Positions 14,747-41,687 of a DNA stretch of 64,000 nt are shown here, one piece after another. The notes below the pieces were generated by a model. It did no database searches and was not told where the DNA came from. It saw only the letters and a program-made list of their open reading frames with translations. Made by a program: the position numbers and the translations under genes. Source of the DNA: Polyangium sp. 6x1 (lineage in GTDB: Bacteria > Myxococcota_A > Polyangia > Polyangiales > Polyangiaceae); assembly GCF_029946515.1 (NCBI RefSeq), contig NZ_JARZHH010000040.1, forward strand, positions 27,904 to 91,903, read 5' to 3'. How positions within the stretch are numbered: position 1 is the first letter of the stretch; each line of letters begins with the position of its first letter.

Positions 14747-17700
14747 ATGAGAGTCGGTCAGGTCCTCGCGCAGCGATTCCGCATCGACGCCCAGGTCGGG
14801 GGCGGCGGTATGGGGCAGGTCTATCGAGCCTTCGATCTCTCCACGGGCGAGGTCGTGGCCGCGAAGATCCTGAACGACACGTCGACCGAGACCGTGATGC
14901 GTTTCGAGCGGGAAGGCCGGGCGCTCGCGCGGCTCTCGCACCCCGGCATCGTCCGCTACATCGCGTACGAGGTGATGCCGGACGGGCAGCCATTCCTCGT
15001 GATGGAGTGGCTCGAAGGCGAGGATCTCGCGCAAAGGCTTTCGCGCTCGCACCTCACGGTCCCCGAGACGATCACGCTCGCGACGCGCGTGGCCGACGCG
15101 CTCGGCGTCGCGCACGCGCAGGGCATCGTCCACCGCGATCTCAAGCCTGGCAATGTCTACCTCGTTGGAGGTCGAATCGAGTCCCCGAAGATCCTCGATT
15201 TCGGCATCGCGTTTTTCGGAGGCAGCGCCCGCATCACCGCGACCGGCACGATGATGGGCACGCCGAGCTACATCGCGCCCGAGCAGGCGCGCAGCGGCGG
15301 CATCGTCGACGCCTCGGCCGACGTGTTTTCCCTCGGATGCCTGCTCTTCGAGTGCCTCTCGGGGAGGCCGCCGTTCCAGGGGGATCACTTCGTCGCCGTG
15401 CTCGCGAAGGTCATCTTCGAGGAGGCGCCGCGGCTCTTCGAGCTCGGCGTCGTCGTGCCCCCGTGGCTCGAAGAGCTCGTCGCGCGCATGCTCTCGAAGG
15501 AGCCCACGCGGCGGCCGCGCGACGGCGCCGTGCTCGCCCGCGCCCTCGAAGCCGAGGCGCTCGAAGGCGAAGGCCTCGACGAGATCCCGCCGCGCTCCCT
15601 CGGCAAGCGCGAGCGGCGCTTCCTCGGCGTCGTGCTGCTCGGCCCGCCCGCGTCCGCGCCGCCCATCACGTCGACCTCGAAGACGCTCGCGGTCTCCACG
15701 CCCGACACGATGCGCTCGGTCGTCACGCGGTTCGGCGCGCACCTCGAGCTGCTCGCGGACGGCACGGCCGTCGTGATCCTGGATCATACGAGCGTGCCCA
15801 CGGACATCGCCGCGCAGGTCGCCCGCTGCGCGCTCACGCTCCGCGAGTTCTTCCCGGGCGTGCCCATCGCCGTGACGACCGGCTGGTGCGAGCTCGGTCG
15901 CGGCCTGCCGGTCGGCGAGGCGATCGAGCGAGCGCTCTGGCTCCTGCACATGGAGGGCTCGATCCCCGGGCCGCGCGTCGCGATCGACGAGACCACCGCG
16001 GGCCTGCTCGACAGCCGCTTCGACATCGTCGATCTCGCGCCCGGCGGCTGCGAGCTGCGCGGCGAGCGCATCGCGGCCGAGGCCTTCCGCCCGCTGCTCG
16101 GCAAGCTCACGCCGTGCGTCGGTCGCGAGCACGAGCTCACCTTGCTCGAGCAGAGCTTCGCGACGGCCGAGGGCGAACCCGCGGCGCTCGCCGTGGTGGT
16201 CACGGGCTCTGCGGGCGTCGGCAAATCGCGCCTCGTCCACGAGTTCATCGAGCGGCGCAAGCGCGCGGCCGTGCCCGTCGAAATCCTGTGGGGGCGAGGG
16301 GATCTCCAGCGGGCCGGCTCGACGTTCGGCCTTCTCGCGGACGTGTTCTGGCGCGCGGCCGAGGTGAAGGGCGGCGAGCCGATCGAGGTGCGGCGCGAGC
16401 GCCTCGCGGCGTTCGTCGCGCGCTACGTCCCTGAGCGGGATCTGCGCCGCGTGACCGAGTTCCTCGGCGAGCTCTCGGGCATCCCTTTCTCCGACGACGA
16501 CAGCCTCCCGCTGCGCGCCGCGCGCCAGGACCCGGAGCTCTGGGGCGAGCAGATACGACGCGCATTTCGCGATTTTTTGCGCGCCCTTTCCGCCGAGCGG
16601 ACCGCGCTCATCGTCGTCGAGGACGTGCACTGGGGCGATCGCGCCTCCGTCTCCGCGCTCGAAGCGGCGCTGCGCGAGCTCGCGGACGAACCGATCTTGC
16701 TCGTCGCGACCGCGCGCCCGGAGGTCGAGCAGGTCTTCCCGCAGCTCTGGGTCGAGTGCGGCCGCCAGGAGATCCGGCTGAAGCACCTCTCCGCGAAGGC
16801 GAGCGCGCGGCTCGCGCGCAAGGTGCTCGGCGACGCGGCGGACGCTCCGCTCGTCGAGCGGCTCGTGGCGCTCTCCGAGGGGCACCCGTTTTTCCTGGAA
16901 GAGCTCGTCCGGGCCGCGTCCGAGGGCACGCTCGGCGAGTCCTTGCCGGGCACGATCGTCGCGATGGTGCAGACGCGCCTCGAACGGCTCGAGCCGCGCG
17001 CGCGCCGGGCCCTGCGCGCCGCGAGCATCCTCGGCGAGGTCTTCTGGCGCGGCGCCGTCGTGCACATGGTCGGCGAGGGAGAGCCGGGCAGCGATCCGCT
17101 CGCCGCGCTCGTCTCCGGCGAGATCTGCCTGCGCCACCGCGAGAGCCGTTTCCCCGGGAACGAGGAGCTCTCGTTCCGCCACGCGCTCCTGCGCGAGGGC
17201 GCGTATGCGCTGCTCACGGACGACGATCGGCAGCTCGGCCACAGGCTCGCCGGCGAATGGCTCGAACGCGCGGGCGAGGCCGATCCGCTGGTCCTCGCGG
17301 GCCACTTCGAGCGCGGCGGCCTCTTCGATCGGGCGGGCACGATGTACATCCGCGGCGCCGAGCAGGCGAGCGCGCGGCGCAATTATCAGGACGCCGAGCG
17401 GTACTTCGCGCGCGCCGACGAGCTGCTCTCGGGTTTGCCCGTGGCGGCGCGGCGAGCGCGCGGCCTCGCGCGGTTCCGCGTCGGCCGACATGCCGACGCC
17501 GTCGCCGAGCTCGACGCGGCGCGCGTGCAGGCCGAAGCCGAAGGGGATGGCCTCGCGGCGGTCGATCTCTTGCTCGACGAGGCCATGGTGCTCGACTGGA
17601 TGGGGGACGTGAAGCGCGCCGAGGAGCGCGTCCTCGCGGCAAAGGCGTGTTACGTCGAAGGCACATCCCCCCTTGTCGACGTGCGCCTCTTGCTCGGGCT

Positions 17701-18565
17701 CGGACGGAGCTCGGATCGCGCCGATCGCAAGGAGGAGGCGGCCCGGTCGCTCTCGGCCGCTGCCGAGAAGGCTGCGCGGCTCGGGGAGGAGGGCTACGAG
17801 ACGCGGACCATCGCGTTTCTCCTGCTCGGGTTCATCCTGCCCATTCTCGGGCGGCTCGAGGAGGCGGCCGCGGCCCTCGACGACGTCATTCGAGGCTGCG
17901 AGGAGCGCAGCGATCTTCTTCATCTCGGCGCGGCGCTCAGCTCGCGTGCGCTCGTGCGAGGCTACCGCGGCGACCGACCCGGCACGGTCTCCGACCTCGA
18001 AAAGACCATCGAGCTCGGCAGGGAGCTCGGCCATCCCGCGCTGGAGCTCCTCGGGTATTACAACCTCGGCGAATACCTTTATTTGACGGACGACCTTCCC
18101 GCGGCCGAGCCGTACATCCGCTCCGCCGCGGCCGCGTTGGGTCGGCCGAACATCGGCGCTCACCCTTCGATCGTCCGATTGCTCGAAGCTCGTGTGGCTC
18201 TCTATCGTGGCGACGAGGCGAGCGCGGCGGCAATCCTCGGCTCCATTCGCGCGGAGCAGGCCGAAGCTCGGGCGCAGGGGACCGAGATCCTCGCGCCGTC
18301 GGAGGAGGTCCTTTGCACCATGGTCGAGCTCGCCGCGACCGACGCGCCGTCCGAGCGCTGGGACGAGCTCGAAGAGCGTTCGGCGCGGTGCTCGGTGGGC
18401 CAGGAGCGGATCGAGGTCCTCGAAGCGCGGGCGCTCACGGCGCTCCGCCGGGGCCGCCGCGACGACGCTGCGCGGCAAATCGGGGTGGCGCTCGACATCG
18501 CGTCGCGGGTCGCGAACGTCATGACGCCGCGGCTCCAGCGTGCGCTCGCCGCTGCGAAGGCCTGA
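14747..18565 (+). CDS. Multidomain Ser/Thr protein kinase: kinase + degenerate cyclase-homology-like region + AAA(STAND) ATPase + TPR
   Basis: Kinase motifs GGGGMGQVYRA, HRDLKPGNVYL, DFGIAF, APEQ. The mid region has RRFLGVVLLG, resembling the cyclase LTVLFaDlvG motif. Walker A is GSAGVGKSRL, Walker B LIVVEDVHW. The C-terminal ~550 aa are TPR-like. Start is chosen at MRVGQV (14747) because the N-termini of the paralogous kinases align (MLPGQVVDGRF at 41687; VRPGEVLGGRF at 21848). An in-frame ATG at 14555 is an alternative. Confidence 0.85.
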   Translation: MRVGQVLAQRFRIDAQVGGGGMGQVYRAFDLSTGEVVAAKILNDTSTETVMRFEREGRALARLSHPGIVRYIAYEVMPDGQPFLVMEWLEGEDLAQRLSRSHLTVPETITLATRVADALGVAHAQGIVHRDLKPGNVYLVGGRIESPKILDFGIAFFGGSARITATGTMMGTPSYIAPEQARSGGIVDASADVFSLGCLLFECLSGRPPFQGDHFVAVLAKVIFEEAPRLFELGVVVPPWLEELVARMLSKEPTRRPRDGAVLARALEAEALEGEGLDEIPPRSLGKRERRFLGVVLLGPPASAPPITSTSKTLAVSTPDTMRSVVTRFGAHLELLADGTAVVILDHTSVPTDIAAQVARCALTLREFFPGVPIAVTTGWCELGRGLPVGEAIERALWLLHMEGSIPGPRVAIDETTAGLLDSRFDIVDLAPGGCELRGERIAAEAFRPLLGKLTPCVGREHELTLLEQSFATAEGEPAALAVVVTGSAGVGKSRLVHEFIERRKRAAVPVEILWGRGDLQRAGSTFGLLADVFWRAAEVKGGEPIEVRRERLAAFVARYVPERDLRRVTEFLGELSGIPFSDDDSLPLRAARQDPELWGEQIRRAFRDFLRALSAERTALIVVEDVHWGDRASVSALEAALRELADEPILLVATARPEVEQVFPQLWVECGRQEIRLKHLSAKASARLARKVLGDAADAPLVERLVALSEGHPFFLEELVRAASEGTLGESLPGTIVAMVQTRLERLEPRARRALRAASILGEVFWRGAVVHMVGEGEPGSDPLAALVSGEICLRHRESRFPGNEELSFRHALLREGAYALLTDDDRQLGHRLAGEWLERAGEADPLVLAGHFERGGLFDRAGTMYIRGAEQASARRNYQDAERYFARADELLSGLPVAARRARGLARFRVGRHADAVAELDAARVQAEAEGDGLAAVDLLLDEAMVLDWMGDVKRAEERVLAAKACYVEGTSPLVDVRLLLGLGRSSDRADRKEEAARSLSAAAEKAARLGEEGYETRTIAFLLLGFILPILGRLEEAAAALDDVIRGCEERSDLLHLGAALSSRALVRGYRGDRPGTVSDLEKTIELGRELGHPALELLGYYNLGEYLYLTDDLPAAEPYIRSAAAALGRPNIGAHPSIVRLLEARVALYRGDEASAAAILGSIRAEQAEARAQGTEILAPSEEVLCTMVELAATDAPSERWDELEERSARCSVGQERIEVLEARALTALRRGRRDDAARQIGVALDIASRVANVMTPRLQRALAAAKA

Positions 18566-18830
18566 GGGCGAACGTCCGTTCGTTCGTAAGGGCCACATCT
18601 AAGGCCCGCATCAGGTTTTTGCTGTATGCCAATGCGTTGGTTCGTGCGCCGACGCACCAATTCTATCGGCCTCGGGCGGAGCTTGCGCATGTTGAGCAAT
18701 TTCGGCGCAGTGGATCGCGCCATTTTTCTGCTTGCTTCGTTGTTGGAGTGCATATAGACATAATGGAATGTCCGGAAACCCTGCGTCTTTCGGCTCCGAC
18801 ATTTTCTTGCTGCAGGATCGGAGGTCAATC

Positions 18831-19673
18831 ATGCGTGTTCTCGGTCGAGGGGCTCTGCTCGTGGCGTTGACGGCGGCTCTTACGGGATGCACCGCGGAGG
18901 TGGGACCGGAGGTGGAGGCGGATGCGGTCGGCGAGGCGGCGAACGCGATCGAGAAGGCCAATGCGCTCCACATGAATGCCCTCCACATGAATGCGCTTCA
19001 CATGAATGCGCTTCACATGAACGCGCTCCACATGAACTCGCTCGATCCGGATTCGCTCTCGGCGATCCGGGATCCCTCGGCGAACGGCGATCTCGCGCGT
19101 GAGTTCATCAAGTATGCCGTGGCCTGCGCGCTCCCCACGACGAAGTCGTTCGAGTTCGTCTGGACCGACGCGCAGAACGTCGAGCATCCGGAGTCGTATC
19201 CGGGGGTGCTCGGCCTCGCCCCGGATTGGGCCACGCAGGCCCCCGGGCTGACCGGCCAGCGCATGGTGAGCGCCTGTTTGGCCGCGCTCACGAACTACTA
19301 CGGCCAGCACGTCCTCGTCTCGATCCGCGCCCCCGAGGCACCGCTCAAGGTGATCGACCCGAACGAGCTCACGGCGTACCCGGAGATCGAGGGCGCGTTT
19401 TGGGGCAACCTCTGGGGTGATACGCCCTACCTGCACGCCTGTTACAACAGCGATACGATCGCGAACTCCCGCTCCCATATGCGCGATTGCGCTGCGGGCC
19501 ACCTCAATCCCGACAACTCCCTCGAGGAATGTGGTCCGATCGACATCGTCGGGCCCTGCGACACCGTCTGCGAGGCGGTGAACAGCGAGACGGGCGCGTA
19601 TCCGTCCTGCGTCCTGCACCCGGGCGTGGAGCTCTCCCCGACCGAGCACGTCATCACGACCGCGCTGCCCTGA
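18831..19673 (+). CDS. Secreted Cys-rich lipoprotein, paralog 2 of a tandem family; contains a (ALHMN)x5 pentapeptide-like repeat
   Basis: GGAGG lies 7 nt before ATG. The lipobox signal is MRVLGRGALLVALTAALTGC. Motifs shared with 19865-20701 and 20866-21696 are GCAL, LG(L/V)APxWAT, MVSAC(L/V)AA, EGAFWGNLWG, ACYN, ANSR, RDCAxGHL, EECGxIDxVGPC, YPSC and a C-terminal ITT(A/G)LP. Confidence 0.75.
   Translation: MRVLGRGALLVALTAALTGCTAEVGPEVEADAVGEAANAIEKANALHMNALHMNALHMNALHMNALHMNSLDPDSLSAIRDPSANGDLAREFIKYAVACALPTTKSFEFVWTDAQNVEHPESYPGVLGLAPDWATQAPGLTGQRMVSACLAALTNYYGQHVLVSIRAPEAPLKVIDPNELTAYPEIEGAFWGNLWGDTPYLHACYNSDTIANSRSHMRDCAAGHLNPDNSLEECGPIDIVGPCDTVCEAVNSETGAYPSCVLHPGVELSPTEHVITTALP
18960..19049 (+). 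repeat. Perfect 15-bp tandem repeat (5 units + 1 degenerate) encoding (N-A-L-H-M)x5 inside paralog 2
   Basis: AATGCSCTYCACATG x5 from 18960, sixth unit AACTCGCTCGATCCG. It corresponds to shorter N-x-L-x-L pentapeptide-like tracts in paralogs 3 and 4. Confidence 0.8.
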
Positions 19674-19753
19674 ACGGGCCCGCCCCCCCCGATTCCGCCC
19701 GCACGACCCATCTTTATCCTGCCCGCGCGCGCGGCCGACATGATGTTTCGGCC

Positions 19754-19769
19754 GCGCAACGCGTTGCGC
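19754..19769. promoter_or_regulatory. Perfect 16-bp palindrome GCGCAACGCGTTGCGC upstream of Cys-rich paralog 3
   Basis: About 95 bp before ATG 19865. The GCGCAACG half-site recurs upstream of paralog 4 (CGCGCAACGCC at ~20752 and AGCGCAACGTT at ~20842). Confidence 0.3.
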
Positions 19770-19864
19770 CCTCCTGCATCGAAGCACGAACCCGTCGGCG
19801 ATCCGACCCACGCGTGTTTTTCCGTGTGTCGTTCATGGCGCCGGCGAACGTCGGAGGAAACAAC

Positions 19865-20701: not shown

Positions 20702-20716
20702 TCGCCGTTTCCGGCC

Positions 20717-20741
20717 GGGACACGCCTCGCGCGCCGTGTCC
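20717..20741 (+). terminator. GC-rich hairpin GGGACACG-N10-CGTGTCC 16 bp after the paralog-3 stop
   Basis: Seven- to eight-bp perfect stem. There is no U-tract, which is common in high-GC genomes. It could attenuate read-through into paralog 4. Confidence 0.25.
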
Positions 20742-20865
20742 GACCCTGCCGCGCAACGCCCTCGAAGGAAGGCTCATCGAACCGAGCGCCCCCGCGGTGC
20801 GCGTCCGCCTGTCTTCGTTCGCGGACGAACCACCCCAGGGAGCGCAACGTTCCTTGGAGGTGCAT

Positions 20866-21696: not shown

Positions 21697-21754
21697 TACC
21701 ACCCTGAAAGACCGGTCGCCCTTTCCACGCCGACCTCCGTCCAGGCGGCCCGCC

Positions 21755-24700
21755 GTGCCATTGCAATTCGACCCGGTCGAATATCGATTGTCGTTTCCTT
21801 TCCGATGGTACCTGGACGCCAGAAATCCTAGGGTTACGCTTCCCCTCGTGCGGCCGGGAGAAGTGCTCGGTGGACGCTTCCGCGTCGAGGCGCGGGTCAA
21901 TGCAGGGGGGATGGGCGAAATCCTTCGCGCCATCGACCTCGCGACGGGACACGTCGTCGCCGCGAAGATCCTCGTCGCCGTCTCCCCCGAGAGCCTCGAG
22001 CGCTTCCGTCGCGAGGCGCAGATCCTCGCGCGCCTCTCGCACCCGGGCATCGTCCGCTACGTCGCCTACGACACCTCCTCGGCGTCGAGCCCGCTGCTCG
22101 TGATGGAATGGCTCGAAGGCGAGGACCTCGGGCGCAGGCTCGCCCGCGGGCCGCTCTCGCTCCGCGAGGCCGTCACGCTCGGCCAGCGCCTCGCCGAGGC
22201 CCTCGCCGTCGCGCACGACGCCGGCGTCGTGCACCGCGACCTCAAGCCGCAAAACGTCTTCCTCGTGAACGGGTCCGTGGGCGATCCGCGGATCCTCGAC
22301 TTCGGCATCGCGCATTGTGGTGAGGCCTCACGCATCACCCAGACCGGCACCGTCATCGGCACGCCGAGCTACATGGCGCCCGAGCAAGTCCGCAGCGGCA
22401 GCATCGTCAAGGCGAGCGCCGACGTCTTCTCGCTCGGCTGCCTGATCTTCGAGTGCATCACCGGCGCGCCGCCCTTCCGCGCCGATCACACGATCGCCGT
22501 CCTCGCGAAGATCATCTTCGAGGACGCGCCGCGCCTCAGCGAGCGCGCGCCCTCCGTGCCCTCGTGGCTCGACGGCCTCATCGCCCGCATGCTCGCCAAG
22601 GAGCCGCTCGGGAGGCCCCCAGACGGCGCGGCCGTCGCGATCGCGCTCGCCGCCGAGAAGGACCTCGATCCCCCGAGCTCGGAGGCCCCGCGCTCCTCCG
22701 CGCCCCGATCGACGCTCGGCGAGGGCGAACGGAGGTTCCTCGGCGTCGTGCTCCGCGGCCGCCGGGAAGGCTTCGGCCCGTTTGGCCCGGCGACCACGCT
22801 CGCCTGCGCCTCGCCGACGGACGACCTCGGCGCGATCGCCGAGCGCTTCGGCGGGCAGCTCGAGGTCTTCGCCGACGGCACCGCGGCCGTGGTGATCGAC
22901 AGGACGCGCGTGCCCACGGACGTCGCGGCCCACGTCGCCCGCTGCGCGCTCGCGCTCTGGGAGCGCGCGCCGGGCGCCGCCATGGCCGTCGCCGCGGGCT
23001 TTGGCGAGCGCGCGCGTGGCGTGCCCGTCGGCGAGGCGATCGACCGCGCGGCGCGGCTCCTCCACGCGCGGAGCGGAGATGCGCGCATCGCCCTCGACGA
23101 GACCACGGTGGGCCTGCTCGACGCGCGCTTCGACGTCGAGGCCCTCGAAGGCGGCGGCTTCGCGCTGCTCGGCGAGCGCGCGAGCTTCGAGGTCTCCCGG
23201 CCCCTGCTCGGCAAGCCCACGCCGTGCGTCGGCCGCGAGCACGAGCTCGGCCTCCTCGACCTCACGTTCGGCGCCTGCAAGAACGAGCCGGCCGCGCGCG
23301 TCGTCGTCGTCTCGGGCCTCGCCGGCATCGGCAAATCGCGCCTGCTCCACGAGTTCGTCGAACGCCAGCGGGCCGCGGTCGAGCCCGCCGAGATCTGGTT
23401 CGGCCGCGGCGATCCCTTGCGCGTCGCTTCGAGCTTCGGCCTGCTCGCCGAGGTCCTGCGCGGCGCCTCGGGCATCCGCGGCGGCGAGACCCTCGCGCGC
23501 CGCCGCGAGCTCTTCTTCGCCCGCGTCGCTCTCCGCGTCCCCGAGCGGGATCGCCGCCGCGTCGCGAACTTCCTCGGCGAGCTCGCGGGCGTGCCTTTCC
23601 CCGACGACGACGACTTGCCGCTGCGCGCCGCGCGCCAGGACCCCGAGCTCTGCGGCGAGCAGATGCAGCGCGCCCTCCGTGATTTCTTACGCGCCGAGTG
23701 CGCGGCCAAACCCCTCGTGCTCCTGCTCGAAGACGTGCACTGGGGGGATCGCGCCTCGCTGCTCGCGCTCGACGCTGCGCTCGAAGGCCTCGCGTTCGAG
23801 CCGATCCTCCTCTGCGCCTCGGCGCGCCCCGAGATCGACGAGCTCTTCCCCGGCCTCTGGTCGAGCCGCGGCCGCCAGGACGTGCGCCTCCGGCATCTCT
23901 CGCCGCGCGCGTGCGTGCGCCTCGTCCGCCACGCGCTCGGCGAGCTCCGCGAAGGGCTCGAGGAGCGCCTCGTCGCGTCTTCCGAGGGCCACCCGTTTTT
24001 CCTGGAAGAGCTGATCCGCGCCGAGGCCGAGGGCCGCGGGGGCACCCCGCCCGGGACGGTCGTGGCCATGGTGCAATCGCGCCTCGAACGATTGGAGCCG
24101 AGCGCGCGCCGCACCTTGCGCGCCGCGAGCATCCTCGGCGAGGTCTTCTGGCGGGGCGCCGTCGCGCGCCTCGCGGGCGATGACGACGAGGCCGCCACGC
24201 GCGATCTCGCGGCCCTCGTCACGCACGAGATCGTCACGCGCCAGCGCGAGAGCCGCATCCCGGGCGAACCTCAATATGCGTTTCGCCAGGCGCTCTGGCG
24301 CGAGGGCGCGTATGCGATGCTCACGGACGAGGATCGCGCGCTCGGCCATTACCTCGCGGCCGAATGGCTGGAGGAGAAGGGCGAGGCCGATGCGCTCGTC
24401 CTGGCGGAGCATTTCGAGCGCGGCGGCGCGGCGGCGCGGGCGGCCTCGTTTTACCTGGCCTCGGCCGAGCAATCGGCGGCCCGCAAGGATTACCTCGACG
24501 CCGAGCGATGTTATGGCAAGGCCGAGGCGCTCTGGGGCGAGCTGCCGACGCTGGCGCAGCGCGGCCGCGGCCTCTCGCGTTTTCGCCTCGGCCGCTATCA
24601 CGACGCGCTCACCGTGCTCGCCCGTGCGCGTGAAGCCGCGGCGCGGCGCGGTGAGGCGTCGCTCGTCGTGGAGCTCTACCTCGACGAGGCCATGGTGCTC

Positions 24701-25684
24701 GACTGGACGGGCGAATATCGCGAGGCCGAGCGCCGCGTGCAGTGCGCGCGTGTCGAGGAGCAGGCCCTCGCGTCGCGCTCGCTGCTCCTCGAAGCGCGCG
24801 TCTTGCTGGGCGTCGGGCGATCGGCGATGCGGGCCGAGCGCGAGGAGGAGGCCGCCGACGAGCTTTCACGCGCGGCCGAGCTCGCGAGTCGCCTCGGCGA
24901 CGAGGGATACGAGACCTACATGATCGCGCATCTCCTCCTCGGATACCTCCTGCCCTTGCTCGGCCGGGTCGACGAGGCCGCGGCCTTGCTCGACGAGGTC
25001 ATTCGACGCTGCGAGGAGCGCGGCGATCTTTTGCACCTCGGCGCCGCGTGGAACACCCGCGCCATGGTTCGCGCTCTTCGCGGCGATCGCGACGGCATGA
25101 TCCGGGACTTCGAGCGCACGAGCGAGCTCGGTCGTGAGCTCGGCCAGCCCACGATGGAGCTCGCGGGCCATTACAACCTCGCCGAGCACCTGTACTGGAT
25201 GGACGACGTCGAGGCCGCCGAGCCCATGATCCGCGCGGCGCTCGGCGTCGCGGCGCGGCGGGCCGGCTGCGTGCGTCCGGCCATGCTCGCGCTGCTCGAC
25301 GCGCGGATCGCCCTCGTCCGCGGCGACGCGCGGACGGCGCGCGCCATTGCCTCGGCCTTGCGCGGGGGCGCGGCCGAGATGTCGCCCTCGGAGGACGTGC
25401 TCTGCGCGATGATCGAGCTCGCGACGGGGGACGGCGAGGGCAGCTTCTCGGACGTCGATGCGGCGTGGGAGGCGCTCGAAGCCCGCTCGGCGCGCGAGAG
25501 CGTGGGGCAGGAGCACATCGAGGTTTTGGAGGCGCGGGCCATGCACGCCTCGCGCCTCGGCCATCGCGAGCGCGCCATGCGCCAGCTCGACGAGGCGATC
25601 GCTGCGGCGTCGCGGATCCCGAACGTCATGAGCGAGCGGCTCCGGCGCAGGCGGGACGAGCTCGCGTGCCTGGGCGCGGCTTGA
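21755..25684 (+). CDS. Multidomain Ser/Thr protein kinase (kinase + cyclase-homology-like + AAA(STAND) + TPR), paralog of 14747-18565
   Basis: Kinase motifs AGGMGEILRA, HRDLKPQNVFL, DFGIAH. RRFLGVVLRG. Walker A GLAGIGKSRL, Walker B LLLLEDVHW. TPR-like C-terminus. It is co-linear with 14747-18565 at about 60% identity. An in-frame GTG at 21848 would give an N-terminus congruent with the paralogs. Confidence 0.85.
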   Translation: MPLQFDPVEYRLSFPFRWYLDARNPRVTLPLVRPGEVLGGRFRVEARVNAGGMGEILRAIDLATGHVVAAKILVAVSPESLERFRREAQILARLSHPGIVRYVAYDTSSASSPLLVMEWLEGEDLGRRLARGPLSLREAVTLGQRLAEALAVAHDAGVVHRDLKPQNVFLVNGSVGDPRILDFGIAHCGEASRITQTGTVIGTPSYMAPEQVRSGSIVKASADVFSLGCLIFECITGAPPFRADHTIAVLAKIIFEDAPRLSERAPSVPSWLDGLIARMLAKEPLGRPPDGAAVAIALAAEKDLDPPSSEAPRSSAPRSTLGEGERRFLGVVLRGRREGFGPFGPATTLACASPTDDLGAIAERFGGQLEVFADGTAAVVIDRTRVPTDVAAHVARCALALWERAPGAAMAVAAGFGERARGVPVGEAIDRAARLLHARSGDARIALDETTVGLLDARFDVEALEGGGFALLGERASFEVSRPLLGKPTPCVGREHELGLLDLTFGACKNEPAARVVVVSGLAGIGKSRLLHEFVERQRAAVEPAEIWFGRGDPLRVASSFGLLAEVLRGASGIRGGETLARRRELFFARVALRVPERDRRRVANFLGELAGVPFPDDDDLPLRAARQDPELCGEQMQRALRDFLRAECAAKPLVLLLEDVHWGDRASLLALDAALEGLAFEPILLCASARPEIDELFPGLWSSRGRQDVRLRHLSPRACVRLVRHALGELREGLEERLVASSEGHPFFLEELIRAEAEGRGGTPPGTVVAMVQSRLERLEPSARRTLRAASILGEVFWRGAVARLAGDDDEAATRDLAALVTHEIVTRQRESRIPGEPQYAFRQALWREGAYAMLTDEDRALGHYLAAEWLEEKGEADALVLAEHFERGGAAARAASFYLASAEQSAARKDYLDAERCYGKAEALWGELPTLAQRGRGLSRFRLGRYHDALTVLARAREAAARRGEASLVVELYLDEAMVLDWTGEYREAERRVQCARVEEQALASRSLLLEARVLLGVGRSAMRAEREEEAADELSRAAELASRLGDEGYETYMIAHLLLGYLLPLLGRVDEAAALLDEVIRRCEERGDLLHLGAAWNTRAMVRALRGDRDGMIRDFERTSELGRELGQPTMELAGHYNLAEHLYWMDDVEAAEPMIRAALGVAARRAGCVRPAMLALLDARIALVRGDARTARAIASALRGGAAEMSPSEDVLCAMIELATGDGEGSFSDVDAAWEALEARSARESVGQEHIEVLEARAMHASRLGHRERAMRQLDEAIAAASRIPNVMSERLRRRRDELACLGAA

Positions 25685-25685
25685 T

Positions 25686-26147: not shown

Positions 26148-26281
26148 GATCGTCCCCCCTCTCCGCGGCTTTCCGCGTTCGAGGTTGACGATCTCACAAA
26201 TGGAGCGGAACTTCCACTGCCTCTGGCAGGAAAACGACGCTCCCTCCGCCACGCTCTGCGGGGGCGCGCCATTCGCTTCGT

Positions 26282-26866: not shown

Positions 26867-26883
26867 GAAGTTTCCCTCGAACC

Positions 26884-26909
26884 GTGAACGAGTTTGCCAC
26901 AGGTTCACG
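26884..26909. promoter_or_regulatory. Inverted repeat CGTGAAC-N12-GTTCACG 18-43 bp upstream of the TetR start; candidate TetR operator
   Basis: It lies in the 94-bp intergenic region (26867-26960) directly upstream of the TetR gene, which is on the minus strand. Confidence 0.3.
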
Positions 26910-26960
26910 CCCGAGGGATCCCCCCATCGTCACGGCCTTGCTCGGGGCCGTGCGTCCGGG

Positions 26961-27356: not shown

Positions 27357-27430
27357 GCGTTCCGGCTTAACAGAACGACGGCGCGGCGTCACCGGCGCGC
27401 GGTTTGCAGCCCTGCACAGCGGGAGGAGCC

Positions 27431-36111: not shown

Positions 36112-36705
36112 TCAGTAGTAGAACGCGACGATCCCTTCGCCCTTTGCGGACGCCTCCTTGACCCACCTGCGCGCGGACAAGATGGCGTCGCGCACGTAGT
36201 CCGTCTCCGCGCGGATCTCGGTCTCCGCGAAAAGCTTGTTTCCCGCCACCACCTGCTCCGGGCTCCAGTAGCCGTGGTTCGGGAAATCGTCGGGGGGCGG
36301 GAACTTGCAGAGGGCCTTGCTGCAATAAAGATCGCTGAAAGGCAAGACCTCGTCGAGGCCCGAGCTCTTCCAGGCCGTCTCGACCTCCTCCATGAACGCC
36401 CACCGGATCGACGAAAAAGCATTGCTGTCGAGGTACCGGCCGAAGTGCTCGACGATCCGCTCGTACCCATACGCATACATGAACCCGTGTCCCTTCTCGG
36501 GGACCGTGCCCATGATCAATGCTTTCACCGCGTCGAACGGCGTCGGCGCACCGCCCGCGATCTCGGTCTTGAACCAGTCCGCCTGTCCGGCGAGACGCTC
36601 CTTGAACCGGCCGCAGATCTGCCGCCGTAGCTTGTCGTCGCCGCTGCCGAAGACGGGCTTCAGTTTATCGAACTTGACCGCATAGATCGTCAACCCGTAG
36701 CTCAT
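36112..36705 (-). CDS. DUF1877 (YfbM-like) family protein
   Basis: 197 aa. The N-terminus MSYGLTIYAVKFDKL and the C-terminus GEGIVAFYY resemble the E. coli YfbM pattern (IGYFAEIDSEKI ... DVVVSFIA). Its K/F/Y-rich composition is atypical for this genome. It sits 10 bp downstream of the PLP enzyme gene. Confidence 0.5.
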   Translation of the reverse strand: MSYGLTIYAVKFDKLKPVFGSGDDKLRRQICGRFKERLAGQADWFKTEIAGGAPTPFDAVKALIMGTVPEKGHGFMYAYGYERIVEHFGRYLDSNAFSSIRWAFMEEVETAWKSSGLDEVLPFSDLYCSKALCKFPPPDDFPNHGYWSPEQVVAGNKLFAETEIRAETDYVRDAILSARRWVKEASAKGEGIVAFYY

Positions 36706-36715
36706 TGCTGTTCTC

Positions 36716-37813
36716 CTACCGGATGCGGCCGCGCGCCGCGATGGGCCAGACCTCGACGAGTCGGTCGTCCTCGACCACGTGGAAATGGTCGTGCAGGTTG
36801 ATCGTCGTGTCGCAGTGGCTCGGCACCAGCAGGACCTTGTCGCCGACCCGCAAATCGCTTCCCTCGCCGTCGAATTCGATGCGGCCATGCTCGTCCCCCG
36901 CGAATGCATACCGCGCGCCCTCGATGCCCCGCACCCGCGGCGGGCCGCTGTCACTCGAGAGCGCCTTCATCCCCGCGTCCACGATCACGTCCGTCGTCCG
37001 CGTCCGGCTCACGACCGTGCTCAGGACGAACAGCGCCTGCTCGAATCCCACGCCCTGCACCCTGCCGTAATGGTCGTCCATCACCACGTACGAGCCCGGC
37101 TGGATCTCCGTGATGCCCGGGACTTCGAGCGCGAACGTCGAGGTGCCCGTGCCGCCCGTCGAGACGATGTCGATCGGCAGGCCCGCGCCGCGGAGGAGGT
37201 CCGCCGTGTCCGTGAGCTTCTTCATCGAGGCGCGCCATTGCAGTTCGCGCTCGTCGCGGCCCTCGACGTGCTGCAAATGCCCCTCGTACCCCTGGAGCCC
37301 GACGAGCACGAGGCCCGGCATCGTCGCCACCTGCCGCCCGAGCGCGAGCGCAGGCTCCCCCGGCAAAACCCCCGTGCGTCGCTGCCCCACGTCCACGTCG
37401 ACGAGCACCGGGATCTTCTGCCCGACCCGCGCCGCCGCGTCGGAGATCGCCCGCGCCGCGCACGCGTCGTCCACGACCGTGAGGACCACGCCGTGCCGCG
37501 AGAGCGCGAGCAGCCGCTCGATCTTCAAGCGCCCGACGATCGGCGTCGACACGAGCACCTCGGGGATCCCCGCGCGGATCATCACCTCGGCCTCGCCGAG
37601 CTTCGCCGCCGTCACGCCGATCGCGCCCGCCGCCATCTGCTTGTGCGCGAGCAGCGGGCACTTGTGGGTCTTCACGTGGGGGCGAAGGCGCACCGTGCCA
37701 GGGATGAGCCGATCGGCCATCGCGCGGATGTTCCGCTCGGCCGCCGCGATGTCCAGGATGAGCGCAGGCGTGTCGATGTCGCCGATGGCCTCGCCCCTCG
37801 TCCACTCGAGCAT
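36716..37813 (-). CDS. D-serine deaminase-like / alanine-racemase-fold PLP-dependent enzyme (DSD1 family)
   Basis: The N-terminal TIM-barrel motif LRPHVKTHKCP contains the PLP-binding Lys. The C-terminal beta domain has HCDTTINL. 365 aa, start at MLEWTRGE. Confidence 0.75.
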   Translation of the reverse strand: MLEWTRGEAIGDIDTPALILDIAAAERNIRAMADRLIPGTVRLRPHVKTHKCPLLAHKQMAAGAIGVTAAKLGEAEVMIRAGIPEVLVSTPIVGRLKIERLLALSRHGVVLTVVDDACAARAISDAAARVGQKIPVLVDVDVGQRRTGVLPGEPALALGRQVATMPGLVLVGLQGYEGHLQHVEGRDERELQWRASMKKLTDTADLLRGAGLPIDIVSTGGTGTSTFALEVPGITEIQPGSYVVMDDHYGRVQGVGFEQALFVLSTVVSRTRTTDVIVDAGMKALSSDSGPPRVRGIEGARYAFAGDEHGRIEFDGEGSDLRVGDKVLLVPSHCDTTINLHDHFHVVEDDRLVEVWPIAARGRIR

Positions 37814-37853
37814 GCTTGGTTCGTTCTCCTTCGTGCCGCGTTTCGATCGCGAG

Positions 37854-40800
37854 CTACGCCCCCATGTGCGCGGCGAGATCGAGGGTCCGCCGATGCTCGG
37901 GGACGAGCTCGACGAAGCTGCGTCGATGCGCGGGCCGCGTGAGCGAAGTCGCGCGCTCCTCGATGCGCCGCTTCGCGATGGAGAGCGCACGCCGCGCACC
38001 CTCCGTGTCCCCCGTCGCCGCGAGCGCCTCGGCGAACGCGAGCCGCACGAGGCCCTCGCCCTCCTCGGCCGCGCCGCCGCGCGCCGCGAGCGCGCTGATC
38101 GCCTTCTCCGCCATGTGCAGGGCTTCCCGCGCGCGCCCGCGCAAGAGCTCGACCATCGCGAGCACGCCGACCGCATACGCGTGGAGGGGCATGCCCGCGA
38201 GCGCGTCGGCGGCCGCGCGCGCCTCGGCGTCCGCGATGTCGAGCTTGCGCGCGTAGAGCGCGGCGATCGCGAGGTAGATCCGCGCGCCGGCCTCGAGCCT
38301 GCGGTTGCGCTGGAGGATGGCCTCGCGGATGCTGCGGGAAAGGAGCGTCTGGGCCTCGTCGATGCGGCCCGTGTGCGCCAGGGAAAACCCGAGGTTTTGC
38401 TGGGCCGCGCTCACGATCTGCGAGAGCCCCTGCGCCTCGCTCGCTTCGAGCGCGGCCCGCGAGGCGAACTCGGCCTCGACGTACGCGCCGATCGCGTTCA
38501 GCAGCGCGGCCTGGTTGCTCCGGTGGAGCGCGACGCTGCGCAGGTCGCCGATCTCCGTGAAGGCCTGGATGACCTGCTCCACCGCGGCGACCGCGCCGGC
38601 TGCGTCCCCCATCGTGTGCGCCCGCAGCGTGTCGGCCTCGTGGAGGCGCGCGCGCGTCGACGGCTCCCGCCGCGCTTCCTCGTGCCCCGCCGCGAGCTCG
38701 TGTAGCGACTCGGCGAGCTCGTGCCGGCCGAGCACATAAAGCGCCGCGGCGACGCGCGCACACGCGGCGAGCTGCGTCGGACGCGGCGTGGTCCGCGGCG
38801 CCGAGACGACCTCGGAGAGCGCCGCCGCCACGGGCTCGAGCGTGCCTGGATCGCCGAGCCTCGTCGCGCACGAGGTGACCTCGCTCGCGGCCGCGCACCA
38901 GGCGTCGGTGCCGCGCGAAAGGACGGTGAGCGCGCGCTCGGCCTTGCGCATGGCCTCGACGTTCTCGCCGCGCCACCGATGCGCCTCGGCCTGGATCACG
39001 AGCAGGCGGCCGAGATCGTCGCCGAGCGCGCCGCAGTTGATCCCGCGCTCGGCGCACGAGAGGGCCTTGCCGAGATCCCCGCCGAGGAGCGCTTGCTCGG
39101 CTGCGCGGGAAAAATGCGTGGTCGCCTTGTCGAGCTGGCCCGCGCGGAAGAGGTGCTCGGCGAGGCGCGTCGGATCGGGCTCTCCGGCCGCCGTGAGGCG
39201 ACGCGCCGCGAGCTTGTGCCCGAGCACGCGGTCCTCGTCGGTGAGCATCGCGTACGCCGCCTCGCGCACGTAGGCGTGCCGGAACGAGTACATCTCCACG
39301 ACGTTCTCGTGCCGCGTCAGGCTCACCTCGCGCAGCTCGAGCAGCTCGCGCGCGCAGAGCTCGCCGAGCAGCGCTGCCACGTCGCGCGTCTCCTCGCCGA
39401 GCAGCGCCGCCACGTCGCCTTCCGTGAACACGTCGCCGTAGACGCTCGCCGCGCGGAGCGCCCGCCGCGCGCGCGGATCGAGCTCTTCGAGCGTGCCTTG
39501 CACCATGGCGATCACGCTCTCCGGCAGCGCCTGATCCCGACCGCGCGCCGCCGCGCGCACGAGCTCTTCCAGGAAAAACGCGTTGCCGCCCGCGCGCTCC
39601 ACGATCTGCGTGATCACCGTGCTCTTCGCCCGCGGCCCGAGCGCCGCGCGCGCGAGCCTCTGGCCGTCGCCGTCTGCGAGCGGCGCGAGCGAGATCGTGA
39701 GCGGCGCGCGCGCGGTCCAGAGGTCCGGGAACGTCCGCGCGAGCTCGGTCCTGCCGAGCGCGAGCACCACGAGCGGCAAGCGCTGCGCGAGCGCCGCGTC
39801 GACGAGGTTCAGGCTCGGAAGATCGCCGAAATGAAGGTCTTCGAGCACGAGCAAGAGCGCGCCGGCGCGTCCCTCGGCGACCACGAGCTCCTCGAACGAT
39901 CGACGGATCCGGTCGCCCATCAACGTCGCGTTGCGCCGCGCGGCGACGAGCCCCGGGCGGCCCTCGTCCTCGAAGGGCAAACCCGCGGCTTCCCCGAGAA
40001 ACTCCGCCACGGACGCGGCGCGGATCGGATCGAGGTGCCGGCCGACGCGCGCTCGCAGCTTGCGCCGCGCGACCTCCAGAGGCTCGCCCGCCGTCACGTT
40101 CGCCGCGCGCCGCAAGGCCCGCGCGAGCAGGCCGAAGGACGATCCCGCCGCCATCGGATCGCCCTGGCCGATCCAGATCTCCACCGGCCGACCTCGCTCG
40201 GCGAGCCAGCGCAAGAGCTCGTGCCGCAGGCGTGATTTGCCGATCCCGGCCTCGCCCGTGACGATCACCGCCTGGGGCGTCCGCTCGCGCTCGGCCTCCT
40301 CGAAGATGCGCTGGATCGCGCCGAGCTCGACGTCACGACCGACGCACGGCGTGGGCCTGCCGAGCAGCGTCCGCGCGGGCTCGCCGACGTCGCGCTCGCC
40401 GAGCAGGAAGAGGCCTTGCTCGTCGCCGCTCACGTCGAAGCGCGCGCCGAGCAGGCCCGCGGTCACGTCGTCGACCGCGATCGCGTCGCGCGGCGCGCGC
40501 GAGAGCATCGGCAGGAAACACTCGATCGTCGAAGCCGCCGGCGCCTCGCCTGCGCTCTCGGCCGCGACGATCGCGGACCGCTCGCCGTCGACCCGCTCGG
40601 CGAACGCGAGCGCGCACTTCGCGGCCCGCGAGGCATCGTCCGTCGCCGTCCCCGAGCCGTGGAACGTCACGAGCTGGTGTCCGTCGAGCAGCTCGTCGAC
40701 CGTCCCGCCAAACCCCGCGGCCACCTCCGCGAGCGAGGTTTTTCCTTCGGAACCCGCGCCCGGCCCTTCCGGGAGCCGCACGATGAGCACGCAGCGCACG

Positions 40801-41687
40801 CGCCGCTCGTGCGCCCCGAGCGCGCCTCCTGGCAACGAGACGGCCTCGACCGTGGTCTCGTCGAGGTCCGCTTCGAGCCCCCGCTCGATCTCCAGCGCGA
40901 GCGCGCCTGCGTTCGCCGGCCGCTCGCCCGGCGCGCGCGCGAGCATCCGCGCGAGCAGCGCTTCGAGCCACGGCGGCGCGTCGGGCCGCAGCGTGCGCAG
41001 CCGCGGCGCGTCCTCGACGACCACGCGCACGAGGTACGCGAGCGAGTCGCCACCCTCGAAGAGCCGTTTGCCCGTGAGCGCGTGCAGCATCAGGCAGCCG
41101 AGGGCGAACACGTCCGCGCGCGCGTCGAGGTTCTGCGCGCCGCGCGCCTGCTCCGGCGCCATGTACCCCATCGACCCGAGCAAGACGCCCTTTTGCGTCA
41201 GCTCCTTCGTGGCACCGCCGAGGCGCGCGATGCCGAAATCGATGAGCTTCGGCCGCTCCAGATCTCCGTCGAGCAGGATCACGTTCCCGGGCTTCAGGTC
41301 CCGGTGCACGATCCCTCGCTCGTGCGCGATCGCGAGCGCCTCCGCGAGGTGACGGAGCAGCCGCACGGCGCCGTCGATCGGCAAGGTTTGTCGCTGGATG
41401 CGCCGGTCGAGGCTCTGGCCCGAGGCCCACTCCATGGCGATGTAGGGGAAGCTTCCGTCGCGACCGTGCGCCACATACCGCACGATGCCTGGATGCACGA
41501 GCGCGGCCATGATCTCCGCCTCGCGCTCGAATCGCTCGACGTTCGCCGCTTCGTCTTCGAGCAGGACCTTGATCGCGACGACCTCGCCCGTCGTGCGGTC
41601 CATCGCGCGGAACACGCGTGCCATGCCGCCTTGGCCGACGACTCCTTCGACGACGAAACGTCCGTCGACCACCTGGCCCGGAAGCAT
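37854..41687 (-). CDS. Multidomain Ser/Thr protein kinase (kinase + cyclase-homology-like + AAA(STAND) + TPR), third paralog
   Basis: Kinase motifs GQGGMARVFRA, HRDLKPGNVILL, DFGIARL. RRVRCVLIVRLPEG. Walker A GEAGIGKSRL, Walker B LLLVLEDLHF. TPR-like C-terminus. Start at MLPGQVVDGRF (41687) is chosen by paralog congruence; the raw ORF extends to a GTG at 41807. Confidence 0.85.
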   Translation of the reverse strand: MLPGQVVDGRFVVEGVVGQGGMARVFRAMDRTTGEVVAIKVLLEDEAANVERFEREAEIMAALVHPGIVRYVAHGRDGSFPYIAMEWASGQSLDRRIQRQTLPIDGAVRLLRHLAEALAIAHERGIVHRDLKPGNVILLDGDLERPKLIDFGIARLGGATKELTQKGVLLGSMGYMAPEQARGAQNLDARADVFALGCLMLHALTGKRLFEGGDSLAYLVRVVVEDAPRLRTLRPDAPPWLEALLARMLARAPGERPANAGALALEIERGLEADLDETTVEAVSLPGGALGAHERRVRCVLIVRLPEGPGAGSEGKTSLAEVAAGFGGTVDELLDGHQLVTFHGSGTATDDASRAAKCALAFAERVDGERSAIVAAESAGEAPAASTIECFLPMLSRAPRDAIAVDDVTAGLLGARFDVSGDEQGLFLLGERDVGEPARTLLGRPTPCVGRDVELGAIQRIFEEAERERTPQAVIVTGEAGIGKSRLRHELLRWLAERGRPVEIWIGQGDPMAAGSSFGLLARALRRAANVTAGEPLEVARRKLRARVGRHLDPIRAASVAEFLGEAAGLPFEDEGRPGLVAARRNATLMGDRIRRSFEELVVAEGRAGALLLVLEDLHFGDLPSLNLVDAALAQRLPLVVLALGRTELARTFPDLWTARAPLTISLAPLADGDGQRLARAALGPRAKSTVITQIVERAGGNAFFLEELVRAAARGRDQALPESVIAMVQGTLEELDPRARRALRAASVYGDVFTEGDVAALLGEETRDVAALLGELCARELLELREVSLTRHENVVEMYSFRHAYVREAAYAMLTDEDRVLGHKLAARRLTAAGEPDPTRLAEHLFRAGQLDKATTHFSRAAEQALLGGDLGKALSCAERGINCGALGDDLGRLLVIQAEAHRWRGENVEAMRKAERALTVLSRGTDAWCAAASEVTSCATRLGDPGTLEPVAAALSEVVSAPRTTPRPTQLAACARVAAALYVLGRHELAESLHELAAGHEEARREPSTRARLHEADTLRAHTMGDAAGAVAAVEQVIQAFTEIGDLRSVALHRSNQAALLNAIGAYVEAEFASRAALEASEAQGLSQIVSAAQQNLGFSLAHTGRIDEAQTLLSRSIREAILQRNRRLEAGARIYLAIAALYARKLDIADAEARAAADALAGMPLHAYAVGVLAMVELLRGRAREALHMAEKAISALAARGGAAEEGEGLVRLAFAEALAATGDTEGARRALSIAKRRIEERATSLTRPAHRRSFVELVPEHRRTLDLAAHMGA

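Follow-up and report, generated by a model that had tools for sequence, protein, structure and literature searches.

Three paralogous Ser/Thr kinases of Polyangium sp. 6x1 carrying a probable degenerate cyclase domain ahead of a STAND-TPR module

Three paralogous proteins of Polyangium sp. 6x1, here called K1, K2, and K3, are probably cytoplasmic STAND-type ('NLR-like') Ser/Thr kinases of the MalT/PknK branch, in which an RD-type Hanks kinase effector is followed by a dead cyclase-homology domain, a nucleotide-binding oligomerisation module (NOD), and a TPR sensor. Their genes lie in an analysed stretch of 64,000 nucleotides (the window), where tblastn located four Hanks-type kinase genes and no more, as a sequence-only reading of the same DNA had claimed. 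K1 (1272 aa; 14747..18565, + strand, stop included) is identical to NCBI protein P0001 from Polyangium sp. 6x1, K2 (1278 aa; 21848..25684, + strand) begins with GTG and corresponds to NCBI protein P0036, and K3 (1277 aa; 37854..41687, - strand) begins with ATG and has orthologs, P0121 and P0122, of the same length. All four kinases match Pfam Pkinase (E 1e-40 to 1e-44; 140-152 bits, cutoff 31.7), and K1-K3 also match Pfam AAA_16 (E 1e-13 to 2e-18; 52-68 bits, cutoff 32.6). The three proteins align end to end and are co-linear paralogs, as had been proposed, with K1 and K2 58% identical, K1 and K3 38-39% identical, and K3 a distant paralog of both (38%). They share an intact kinase, a class III cyclase fold of ~170 aa, a STAND NTPase, and ~450 aa of TPR-like repeats, and are devoid of transmembrane segments (Kyte-Doolittle maximum 1.66). 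Judged from the alignments, their paralogy exceeds chance by far, and their clustering is modest, the family being highly multi-copy. The finding is sound, and it is fairly ordinary because the family of K1-K3 is very large and has been annotated before.

The kinase domain of K1 occupies aa 1-275 (14747..15571, + strand; Pfam Pkinase E 1e-42). Kinase domains had been assigned to all three proteins, and each indeed scores above the Pkinase gathering threshold with a complete catalytic set, comprising the beta3 Lys, alphaC Glu, HRD Asp, catalytic-loop Asn, DFG Asp, and APE. In K1 numbering, K40, E56, H129-R-D131, N136, D151-F-G, and A-P-E179 are invariant among the 228 family members used for residue counts, and the activation-loop T164 is kept in 226 of them. 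These residues predict an active RD-type Hanks kinase. The fourth gene, K4 (1714..4917, - strand; 1067 aa), encodes a single-pass membrane Ser/Thr kinase (Pkinase E 1e-40) with an extracytoplasmic TPR region. Its one segment of transmembrane grade (aa 336-354, Kyte-Doolittle 2.33) and its matches to TPR_17, TPR_2, and TPR_1 bear out its earlier description as a TM+TPR kinase, and tblastn of the window gave no mid-domain or NTPase match in it. K4 is an ordinary receptor-type membrane kinase outside the K1-K3 family.

The STAND module of K1 spans aa 457-821 (16115..17209, + strand; Pfam AAA_16 E 2e-18), divided into a P-loop core (aa 457-696) and a helical lid with winged helix (aa 697-821), and is followed by a TPR-like sensor of ~22 paired helices at aa 825-1272 (17219..18562, + strand). 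The predicted Walker A motif GxxGxGKS (G490-x-G-K-S494 in K1) is present without exception in 228/228 members. The Walker B motif had been given as hhhhDD(V/L)H, and it is there, with Asp at the second acidic position (D626) in 226 members; the 'DD' reading is slightly wrong because the first position (E625) is Glu in 200 of the 228 and Asp in 28, so the motif is better written hhhhE-D-(L/V)-H. In an AF2 model of the C-terminal 816 aa of K1 (pLDDT 93), an alpha/beta core and a lid precede a winged-helix-like H-H-E-H-H-E-E unit, and the paired helices come last. The top PDB match of the model is 6mfv (E 3e-13), a crystallised STAND protein with TPRs, followed by SAMD9, Apaf-1, MalT (8bob), CED-4, and NLRC4. 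Foldseek matched the sensor to the TPR sensor of 6mfv, the TPRs of LGN, and designed CTPR proteins, and TPR_12, TPR_MalT, and TPR_10 are present in homologs of K1-K3. The AAA_16 match and the model agree with the NTPase-TPR architecture proposed earlier, and the K1 model has the NBD, helical domain, and winged helix, followed by a repeat sensor, that define the STAND NOD (Danot 2015, PMC4381067).

Between the kinase and AAA_16 lies a stretch of ~170 aa that has no Pfam match. It corresponds to aa 289-456 of K1 (15611..16114, + strand) and was located by tblastn with the K1 mid domain in K2 (22703..23224, + strand; 54% identity, E 2e-42; included in alignment A5) and K3 (40347..40823, - strand; 33% identity, E 6e-14). 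The opening motif is ERRFLGVVL in K1 and K2 and ERRVRCVLI in K3. The sequence-only reading took this block for degenerate cyclase homology, and that assignment holds, with a class III cyclase-homology fold and most catalytic residues lost. The domain HMMs suggested as a check succeeded for Pkinase and AAA_16 in K1-K3 and for TPR in K4 and the homologs, but not for Guanylate_cyc. PF00211 gave no match with the whole proteins at E<=0.1 or with the isolated mid domains at E<=10, and it is absent from the precomputed annotation of ~240 K1-K3 homologs. Against Pfam and NCBIfam, the isolated mid domains returned nothing but one weak match, of K3 to positions 323-377 of TIGR03903, which lie in the cyclase region (E 0.0017). 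A profile of the mid domain reached only E 0.05-0.5 against the PDB, and hhalign of this profile with the single Rv1625c sequence gave a probability of 0.3%, usable for register only. Because this sequence-only cyclase evidence is weak, the mapping of residues rests on the weak in-register alignment together with the fold match. The same statistics, which fall short of significance, and an identity to cyclases of 7-18% would suit a generic beta-alpha-beta-beta-alpha-beta linker, ferredoxin-like or GGDEF-like, that resembles cyclases by convergence; such an origin is considered highly improbable.

Catalytic positions were mapped with Rv1625c D256, D300, K296, D365, N372, and R376 as reference. 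In this weak but in-register alignment the catalytic set of class III cyclases is incomplete. The first metal-Asp position holds an acidic residue in none of the 228 members, Leu stands in place of K296, a deletion covers the D365 region, and the N372 equivalent, the transition-state Asn, is Asp or Glu in 210/228. The second metal Asp (D338, equivalent to D300) is kept in 198/228, and the R376-equivalent position is Arg in 107/228. Two-metal cyclase catalysis requires both aspartates. The mid domain is therefore most likely a degenerate, catalytically dead class III cyclase domain that makes no cNMP, although D338 and the partly kept Arg suggest that it may retain some nucleotide or metal binding.

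The same two residues, kept in 87% and 47% of members, could be taken as signs of an active, non-canonical nucleotide cyclase, making K1-K3 bifunctional in the manner of the TOMM kinase/cyclase fusions. Among NCBIfam models, the one for the 'TOMM system kinase/cyclase fusion protein' (TIGR03903) shares their domain order and ranks first for K1 (260.7 bits) and K2 (246.1 bits) and second for K3 (218.4 bits), whose mid domain aligns with its cyclase region; Rv0386 also offers a precedent for unusual substrate-binding residues in cyclases (PMC3466318). The matches consist of 2-3 stretches, however, and K1-K3 are not members of TIGR03903, because their scores are about one-third of the 705.75-bit cutoff. 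The lack of any Guanylate_cyc match and the loss of the first metal Asp, the substrate Lys, and the transition-state Asn leave an active cyclase very unlikely. The K1-K3 cyclase domain differs from that of the TOMM fusions in being without catalytic residues, and TOMM (thiazole/oxazole peptide) genes were not seen among the neighbours scanned.

The closest known systems resemble K1-K3 in part. Mycobacterium tuberculosis PknK (Rv3080c), which Danot 2015 (PMC4381067) expressly places among the STAND Ser/Thr kinases, is described as having an N-terminal Hanks kinase, a MalT-like AAA_16 NOD, and a helical-repeat sensor, as in K1-K3, and NCBI gives the name PknK to P0126, the P. aurulentum ortholog of K3. 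The myxobacterial proteins have a fixed degenerate cyclase domain of ~170 aa between kinase and NOD, and, unlike the single-gene PknK, they are members of a very large set of paralogs. MalT-type STAND proteins are related through the matches of the K1 C-terminal model to MalT, Apaf-1, and 6mfv. In mycobacterial Rv0386, Rv1358, and Rv2488c, a class III cyclase-homology domain lies directly N-terminal to an AAA/STAND ATPase and TPRs (PMC3466318), a core that is shared with K1 aa 289-1272. In these regulators the cyclase is active (Rv0386), the effector is a LuxR DNA-binding domain at the C-terminus, and a kinase is lacking, whereas K1-K3 carry a dead cyclase and an N-terminal kinase effector. 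The Pseudomonas aeruginosa 'class III adenylyl cyclase-like ATP-binding protein' 6yii is also among the closest known systems; it is not a sequence relative, as a phmmer search of the PDB sequences with K1 aa 282-860 came back empty. A literature search for pseudo-cyclase or kinase-cyclase fusions found nothing relevant.

The mid-domain profile search found 3,444 representative clusters (more than 3,000 at 50% identity), with the domain nearly always at aa ~285-470 of proteins of ~1300 aa. P. aurulentum has at least seven copies, and a single Kofleriaceae MAG has at least 14 loci. By sequence comparison, K1 and K2 represent a lineage-specific duplication, while the distance of K3 from both is no smaller than the family median. 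Across Polyangium species the orthologs keep their synteny and share 87-94% identity; by domain, the identity is 92-95% for the cyclase-like part, 90-94% for the kinase, and 79-93% for the TPR sensor. By the ortholog comparison every domain of K1-K3 is under strong purifying selection, the cyclase-like domain as strongly as the kinase. Recognising the unannotated stretch as a degenerate class III cyclase domain is a useful addition to annotation and a clear further case among the few non-catalytic cyclase-like domains. Thousands of myxobacterial STAND kinases carry it, and it gives a testable entry point to the regulation of an expanded kinase class of the Polyangia.

A likely switch mechanism for K1-K3 can be drawn from established STAND behaviour (Danot 2015, PMC4381067). 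Ligand binding at the TPR sensor would release the closed ADP form, and ATP exchange would lead to STAND oligomerisation. The oligomer would bring the N-terminal kinase domains together for trans-autophosphorylation of the conserved activation-loop threonines, and the phosphorylated kinase would be switched on towards its substrates. Class III cyclase domains are obligate dimers, so the dead cyclase domain may, speculatively, serve as a dimerisation or nucleotide-binding module that couples the switch to the kinase. A stronger form, offered only tentatively, makes it an obligatory coupling module throughout this very large NLR-like kinase family, either a head-to-tail dimeriser or an ATP/cNMP-sensing pseudoenzyme that passes the STAND switch to the kinase. 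If so, these proteins would parallel, in bacteria, the ROCO/LRRK kinases and other machines that combine a switch with a kinase.

The layout of effector, STAND, and repeat sensor is also that of bacterial NLR-like defence proteins, and K1-K3 might instead be immune or conflict sensors resembling the Avs-type anti-phage STANDs, with the kinase as a toxic effector fired when the TPR sensor recognises a protein of a phage or competitor. In multicellular myxobacteria the family has expanded enormously, a pattern that Kaur et al. 2020 link to conflict systems. The kinase domains match the PADLOC kinase models PD-T4-6, mad6, and MkoA, but these matches stay within aa ~1-280, the generic kinase domain, and PADLOC-DB v2 has no defence STAND model that matches the NTPase or sensor of K1-K3. 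The synteny and identity of the orthologs, a sensor that is conserved rather than hypervariable, and housekeeping or metabolic neighbours (among them Lon, an MFS transporter, an isochorismatase, and a D-Ser dehydratase-like protein) in place of a defence island also argue against an immune role, which is judged unlikely. FHA, PP2C, or substrate partner genes were not found among the neighbours scanned near K1-K3.

The proposed N-termini, MRVGQVLAQRF in K1, (V/M)RPGEVLGGRF in K2, and MLPGQVVDGRF in K3, read as the predicted pattern M-x-x-G-(Q/E)-V-(L/V)-x-(G/Q)-R-F. The open reading frames continue upstream for 64, 31, and 40 extra codons in K1, K2, and K3, and tblastn aligned residues 1-1336 of the long K1 frame to close orthologs, as would be expected if the longer frames held the real N-termini. 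Ortholog DNA speaks against this. ATG 14747, GTG 21848, and ATG 41687 are each kept in every ortholog examined (the K2 GTG in 6/6 species, the K3 ATG in 5/5), and in 119 of 143 annotated homologs 17 aa separate the N-terminus from the Gly-rich loop. The K1 extension (14555..14746, + strand), part of the divergent lon/K1 intergenic region, carries a 10-nt deletion, a 1-nt indel, and an 8-nt insertion in orthologs, and Polyangium sp. 15x6 has an in-frame TAA five codons ahead of the ATG. GC3 is low across the extensions, only 0.57-0.67 in that of K1, whose substitutions are aperiodic (12/15/13 by phase), against 0/0/7 by codon position downstream of the K2 start. In the K2 extension (21755..21847, + strand), conserved as DNA only, the upstream GTG 21755 is ACG, ACA, or GCG in orthologs, with 1-2-nt indels and an in-frame stop at codon -14 in MAG L005. 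The K3 extension (41688..41807, - strand) has a conserved 35-nt block with ATG 41726, which is out of frame in two species through a 1-nt deletion (P. spumosum) and a 1-nt insertion (P. aurulentum) before ATG 41687; many indels lie further upstream. The ortholog alignments thus find no conservation of the extensions as coding sequence and indicate that all three short starts are right and the extensions non-coding, leaving the longer frames a negligible chance of being real.

A sigma70-like promoter of the divergent lon gene, TTGACG-16-TATGGT (14518..14545, - strand; 1 site against 0.0 expected), is predicted in a near-invariant block of alignment A2, and it too counts against the long K1 frame. 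An Rfam search across the entire window returned 0 families; the conserved block between lon and K1 is therefore no known RNA. Scans for sigma70 promoters upstream of K2 and of K3 found none; a hand-read TGGACC-N16-GATACT upstream of K3 fell under the scan threshold and is not claimed. The extensions had been called R/G-rich, which is true of K1 (R+G 36%) but not of K2 (13%) or K3 (23%), the proteins overall having 20%. They had also been regarded as mis-calls, yet P0001, P0036, and P0121/P0122 already begin at the short starts, and the public annotation needs no correcting.

The G+C content of the window is 65-72%, and because long spurious ORFs occur everywhere at such values, genes were identified by GC3 and homology. 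A tblastn search with kinase domains found exactly four kinase genes: K1 (14747-18565, plus strand), K2 (21848-25684, plus strand), K3 (37854-41687, minus strand), and K4 (1714-4917, minus strand). Pfam matches comprise Pkinase in K1-K4 and AAA_16 in K1-K3, and the latter three can be aligned over their full length, with 58% identity between K1 and K2 and 38% between K3 and either of them. In these paralogs a kinase domain is followed by a cyclase-like mid domain, a STAND NTPase, and a TPR region; they contain no TM-grade segment and are cytoplasmic. K4 is a receptor-type membrane kinase, as the sequence-only reading had proposed, with TPR matches and a single segment of strong hydrophobicity (aa 336-354), and neither Pfam nor tblastn within the window detected a counterpart of the mid domain or NTPase in it. 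An antisense ORF of 1355 aa that spans all of K1 (14531-18598, minus strand) is a shadow ORF of the kind typical at high G+C rather than a gene, as the GC3 pattern there fits the plus strand.

The kinase motifs are intact. All 228 aligned family members have the beta3 Lys, alphaC Glu, HRD, catalytic Asn, DFG, and APE; the HRD arginine is among these invariant residues, which makes these enzymes RD kinases. An activation-loop threonine, T164, is kept in 226 of the 228 and a second one in 151. The family kinases are predicted to be active and dependent on activation-loop phosphorylation.

The mid domain (K1 aa 289-456) was the most uncertain portion of the sequence-only reading, which had described a degenerate cyclase-homology block and proposed domain HMMs as a check. 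The Guanylate_cyc HMM fails to support it, matching neither the whole proteins nor, even at E≤10, the isolated ~180-aa segments, and PF00211 occurs in none of ~240 listed homologs. The sole hint from a single sequence was the similarity of K3 to the cyclase segment of TIGR03903 (E 0.0017). When a 42-sequence profile of the mid domain was compared with PDB sequences, class III cyclases ranked first (2w01, 6fht, and 3mr7), with marginal E-values of 0.05-0.5 and alignments in register. An AlphaFold2 model (pLDDT 84.8, pTM 0.81) has a beta-alpha-beta-beta-alpha-beta core, and in a Foldseek search its 50 best PDB matches were, without exception, catalytic domains of adenylyl or guanylyl cyclases (E 1e-7 to 2e-5), among 124 matches at E≤1e-3. 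The predicted structure settles the fold as class III cyclase-homology, and on this point the block was rightly recognized.

The catalytic site was assessed against the cyclase domain of Rv1625c, in a sequence that agrees fully with the deposited chains from residue 6 on; the established catalytic residues of that enzyme are D256, D300, K296, D365, N372, and R376. The profile-to-Rv1625c alignment is statistically weak, yet in register with the HMM alignment to PDB cyclases, and columns were counted over 228 members. At the position of the first metal aspartate, D256, the family has Gly, Arg, or Ala after beta1, with an acidic residue in 0/228, whereas the second, D300, is kept as D338 (K1 numbering) in 198/228. 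The K296 position is hydrophobic (Leu), D365 falls within an alignment deletion and gives no count, N372 is replaced by Asp or Glu in 210/228 (Asn in 6), and R376 is partly kept (107/228). These counts mark the mid domain as a degenerate cyclase-homology domain that, judging from its residues, should not make cyclic nucleotides. An active cyclase of non-canonical type is very unlikely, since the first metal aspartate is missing in every member. K1-K3 are under purifying selection, and the mid domain is not decaying, being 92-95% identical between orthologs, on par with the kinase. In the profile, E289, D414, and F425 are invariant and D353, R395, and T417-A-G-L-L nearly so.

The STAND-TPR architecture that had been proposed is borne out by both motifs and structure. 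In the family alignment the Walker A motif, GxxGxGKS, is invariant; the Walker B motif had been read with 'DD' and is ED in the family (hhhhE-D-(L/V)-H). In a model of K1 aa 457-1272 (pLDDT 93, pTM 0.87), a P-loop alpha/beta core is followed by a helical lid, a winged-helix-like unit, and then ~22 paired helices. The model's best PDB match is 6mfv, crystallized as a 'STAND protein with a tetratricopeptide repeat sensor' (E 3e-13 over 720 columns), followed by SAMD9, Apaf-1, MalT, plant TIR-NLR, CED-4, NLRC4, and classic TPR proteins such as LGN.

In the general STAND scheme, an inducer bound to the sensor opens an ADP-bound NOD, and exchange for ATP leads to multimerization, which gathers the effector domains; PknK has been named a STAND kinase of the MalT subfamily (Danot 2015, PMC4381067). 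By extension, an inducer at the sensor of K1-K3 would open the ADP-bound NOD, and ATP exchange would cause multimerization and bring the kinase effector domains together. For RD kinases with a conserved activation-loop threonine, such proximity means trans-autophosphorylation, which would activate K1-K3.

K1-K3 belong to the known class of STAND-type Hanks kinases and, by analogy, probably operate as switches of the PknK/MalT type. They fall outside TIGR03903, scoring about 250 bits against a cutoff of 706 bits, nor are they class III cyclases in any catalytic sense. In public annotation their genes already appear as serine/threonine kinases with correct starts, and the sequence-only reading was essentially right in both observation and interpretation. 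The one new point, which may already be recorded elsewhere, is that a dead, strongly conserved cyclase-homology domain, without a Pfam match in these proteins, is a constant component of a family numbering thousands.

The starts proposed from sequence (ATG 14747, GTG 21848, and ATG 41687) are all correct, being conserved in orthologs in which the upstream ORF extensions are broken. ATG 14747 of K1 is kept in five species. In orthologs the 192-nt extension before it is interrupted by a 10-nt deletion, a 1-nt indel, and an 8-nt insertion, with an in-frame TAA five codons upstream of the ATG in Polyangium sp. 15x6. GTG 21848 of K2 is kept in 6/6 species; variable columns downstream of it fall at codon position 3 in 7/7 cases, compared with 12/15/20 by phase upstream. 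The GTG of the longer K2 ORF (21755) is ACG, ACA, or GCG in orthologs, and an in-frame stop at codon -14 in one MAG also excludes TTG 21788. ATG 41687 of K3 is kept in 5/5 species. Upstream, ATG 41726 shows conservation at the DNA level but is out of frame in P. spumosum, through a 1-nt deletion, and in P. aurulentum, through a 1-nt insertion. Coding-level GC3 is reached only near the proposed starts. The Gly-rich loop lies 17 residues from the N-terminus in 119 of the 143 annotated family members in which it was located, equivalent to a start of the form M-x-x-G-x-V-L-x-x-R-F. Public annotation already has these starts (1272 aa for K1, P0001; 1278 aa for K2, P0036; 1277 aa for K3 orthologs), so the extensions are artefacts of maximal-ORF reading and not database errors. 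Of the description of the extensions as R/G-rich and likely mis-calls, their non-coding nature stands; public annotation contains no such calls, and R+G enrichment holds only for K1 (36%, against 13% for K2, 23% for K3, and a protein background of 20%).

The K1 extension is conserved as DNA although non-coding because it overlaps the promoter of lon, which is transcribed divergently from K1. This sigma70-like promoter is TTGACG-16-TATGGT at 14545-14518 (1 site found, 0.0 expected). Within the lon/K1 intergenic region (14439-14746), five Polyangium species share a nearly invariant block of ~150 nt (about 14440-14590) that is better conserved than K1 synonymous sites; part of the block is the lon promoter and the remainder is presumably the lon 5′ leader, with no Rfam match to the block. 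Short conserved non-coding blocks also lie directly upstream of the K3 ATG (41694-41726, minus strand; ATGGACCGCGCCGAACTTTGCGCGGATACTTGG) and the K2 GTG (21770-21847, plus strand), and a terminator-like hairpin was flagged at 21774-21790, upstream of K2. A simple promoter scan upstream of K2 and K3 found nothing. No recognizable Shine-Dalgarno sequence precedes any of the three starts, making leaderless or non-SD initiation possible.

With a limit of E≤1e-3, the mid-domain profile retrieved 3,444 representative clusters (50% identity), and 1,121 remain at E≤1e-30. Where the protein is full-length, the domain almost always occupies aa ~285-470 of ~1,300 residues, a near-constant position indicating that the four-part architecture is fixed. 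Members occur in Polyangium, Sorangium, Chondromyces, Minicystis, Labilithrix, Nannocystis, and Kofleriaceae, with many copies per genome. One 2,588-aa representative (P0238) has two mid domains and appears to be either two family members fused in tandem or the result of a metagenome assembly in which a stop or frameshift was missed. The source of the window is a myxobacterium belonging to the class Polyangia: K1 matches P0001 of Polyangium sp. 6x1 with 100% identity, and its close orthologs are found in Polyangium sp. 15x6, y55x31, P. fumosum, P. jinanense, P. spumosum, and P. sorediatum. Separate orthologs of K1 and of K2 (87-94%) exist in other Polyangium species, and proteins of Sorangium and P. 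aurulentum are equidistant from both (59-63%), placing their duplication within the Polyangium lineage. At 38%, K3 is no nearer to K1 or K2 than the median of the family (42-43%).

A role for K1-K3 as immune or conflict sensors would fit their architecture and the expansion of the family in multicellular bacteria; it is nevertheless unlikely, because PADLOC matches are to the generic kinase domain only, synteny is maintained, sensor sequences vary only mildly, and housekeeping genes surround the kinases. K1-K3 do not represent any PADLOC defence system. The spacing of K1, three small genes, and K2 is unchanged in four other Polyangium genomes, a methyltransferase, a PPC-domain protein, and a D-Ser-dehydratase-like gene remain beside K3 in four other genomes, and K1, K2, and K3 share one contig in Polyangium sp. 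15x6 and P. spumosum. The kinase neighbours are unrelated housekeeping or metabolic genes, and none encodes an FHA or PP2C protein or an obvious substrate. The three small plus-strand genes between K1 and K2 (18732-21696) have clearly coding-level GC3 and no Pfam match; they lie at 18732-19673, about 19.8-20.7 kb (frame of 19487), and about 20.7-21.7 kb (frame of 19879).

Other genes in the window with no obvious link to the kinases encode a beta-lactamase-fold/NamZ exo-muramidase fusion (47269-49677, minus strand), a 1,499-aa M36 fungalysin with PA and PKD domains (55779-60278, plus strand), a Uma2-family endonuclease (49686-50489, minus strand), and a DUF7691 protein (36112-36954, minus strand). 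The 931-aa product of 30612-33407 (minus strand), with Pfam matches to MVP_shoulder (E 9e-15), Vault_3, and Vault_4, is a bacterial homolog of the eukaryotic major vault protein, and its gene adjoins one for a protein with MutS domain V only (33464-35719, minus strand).
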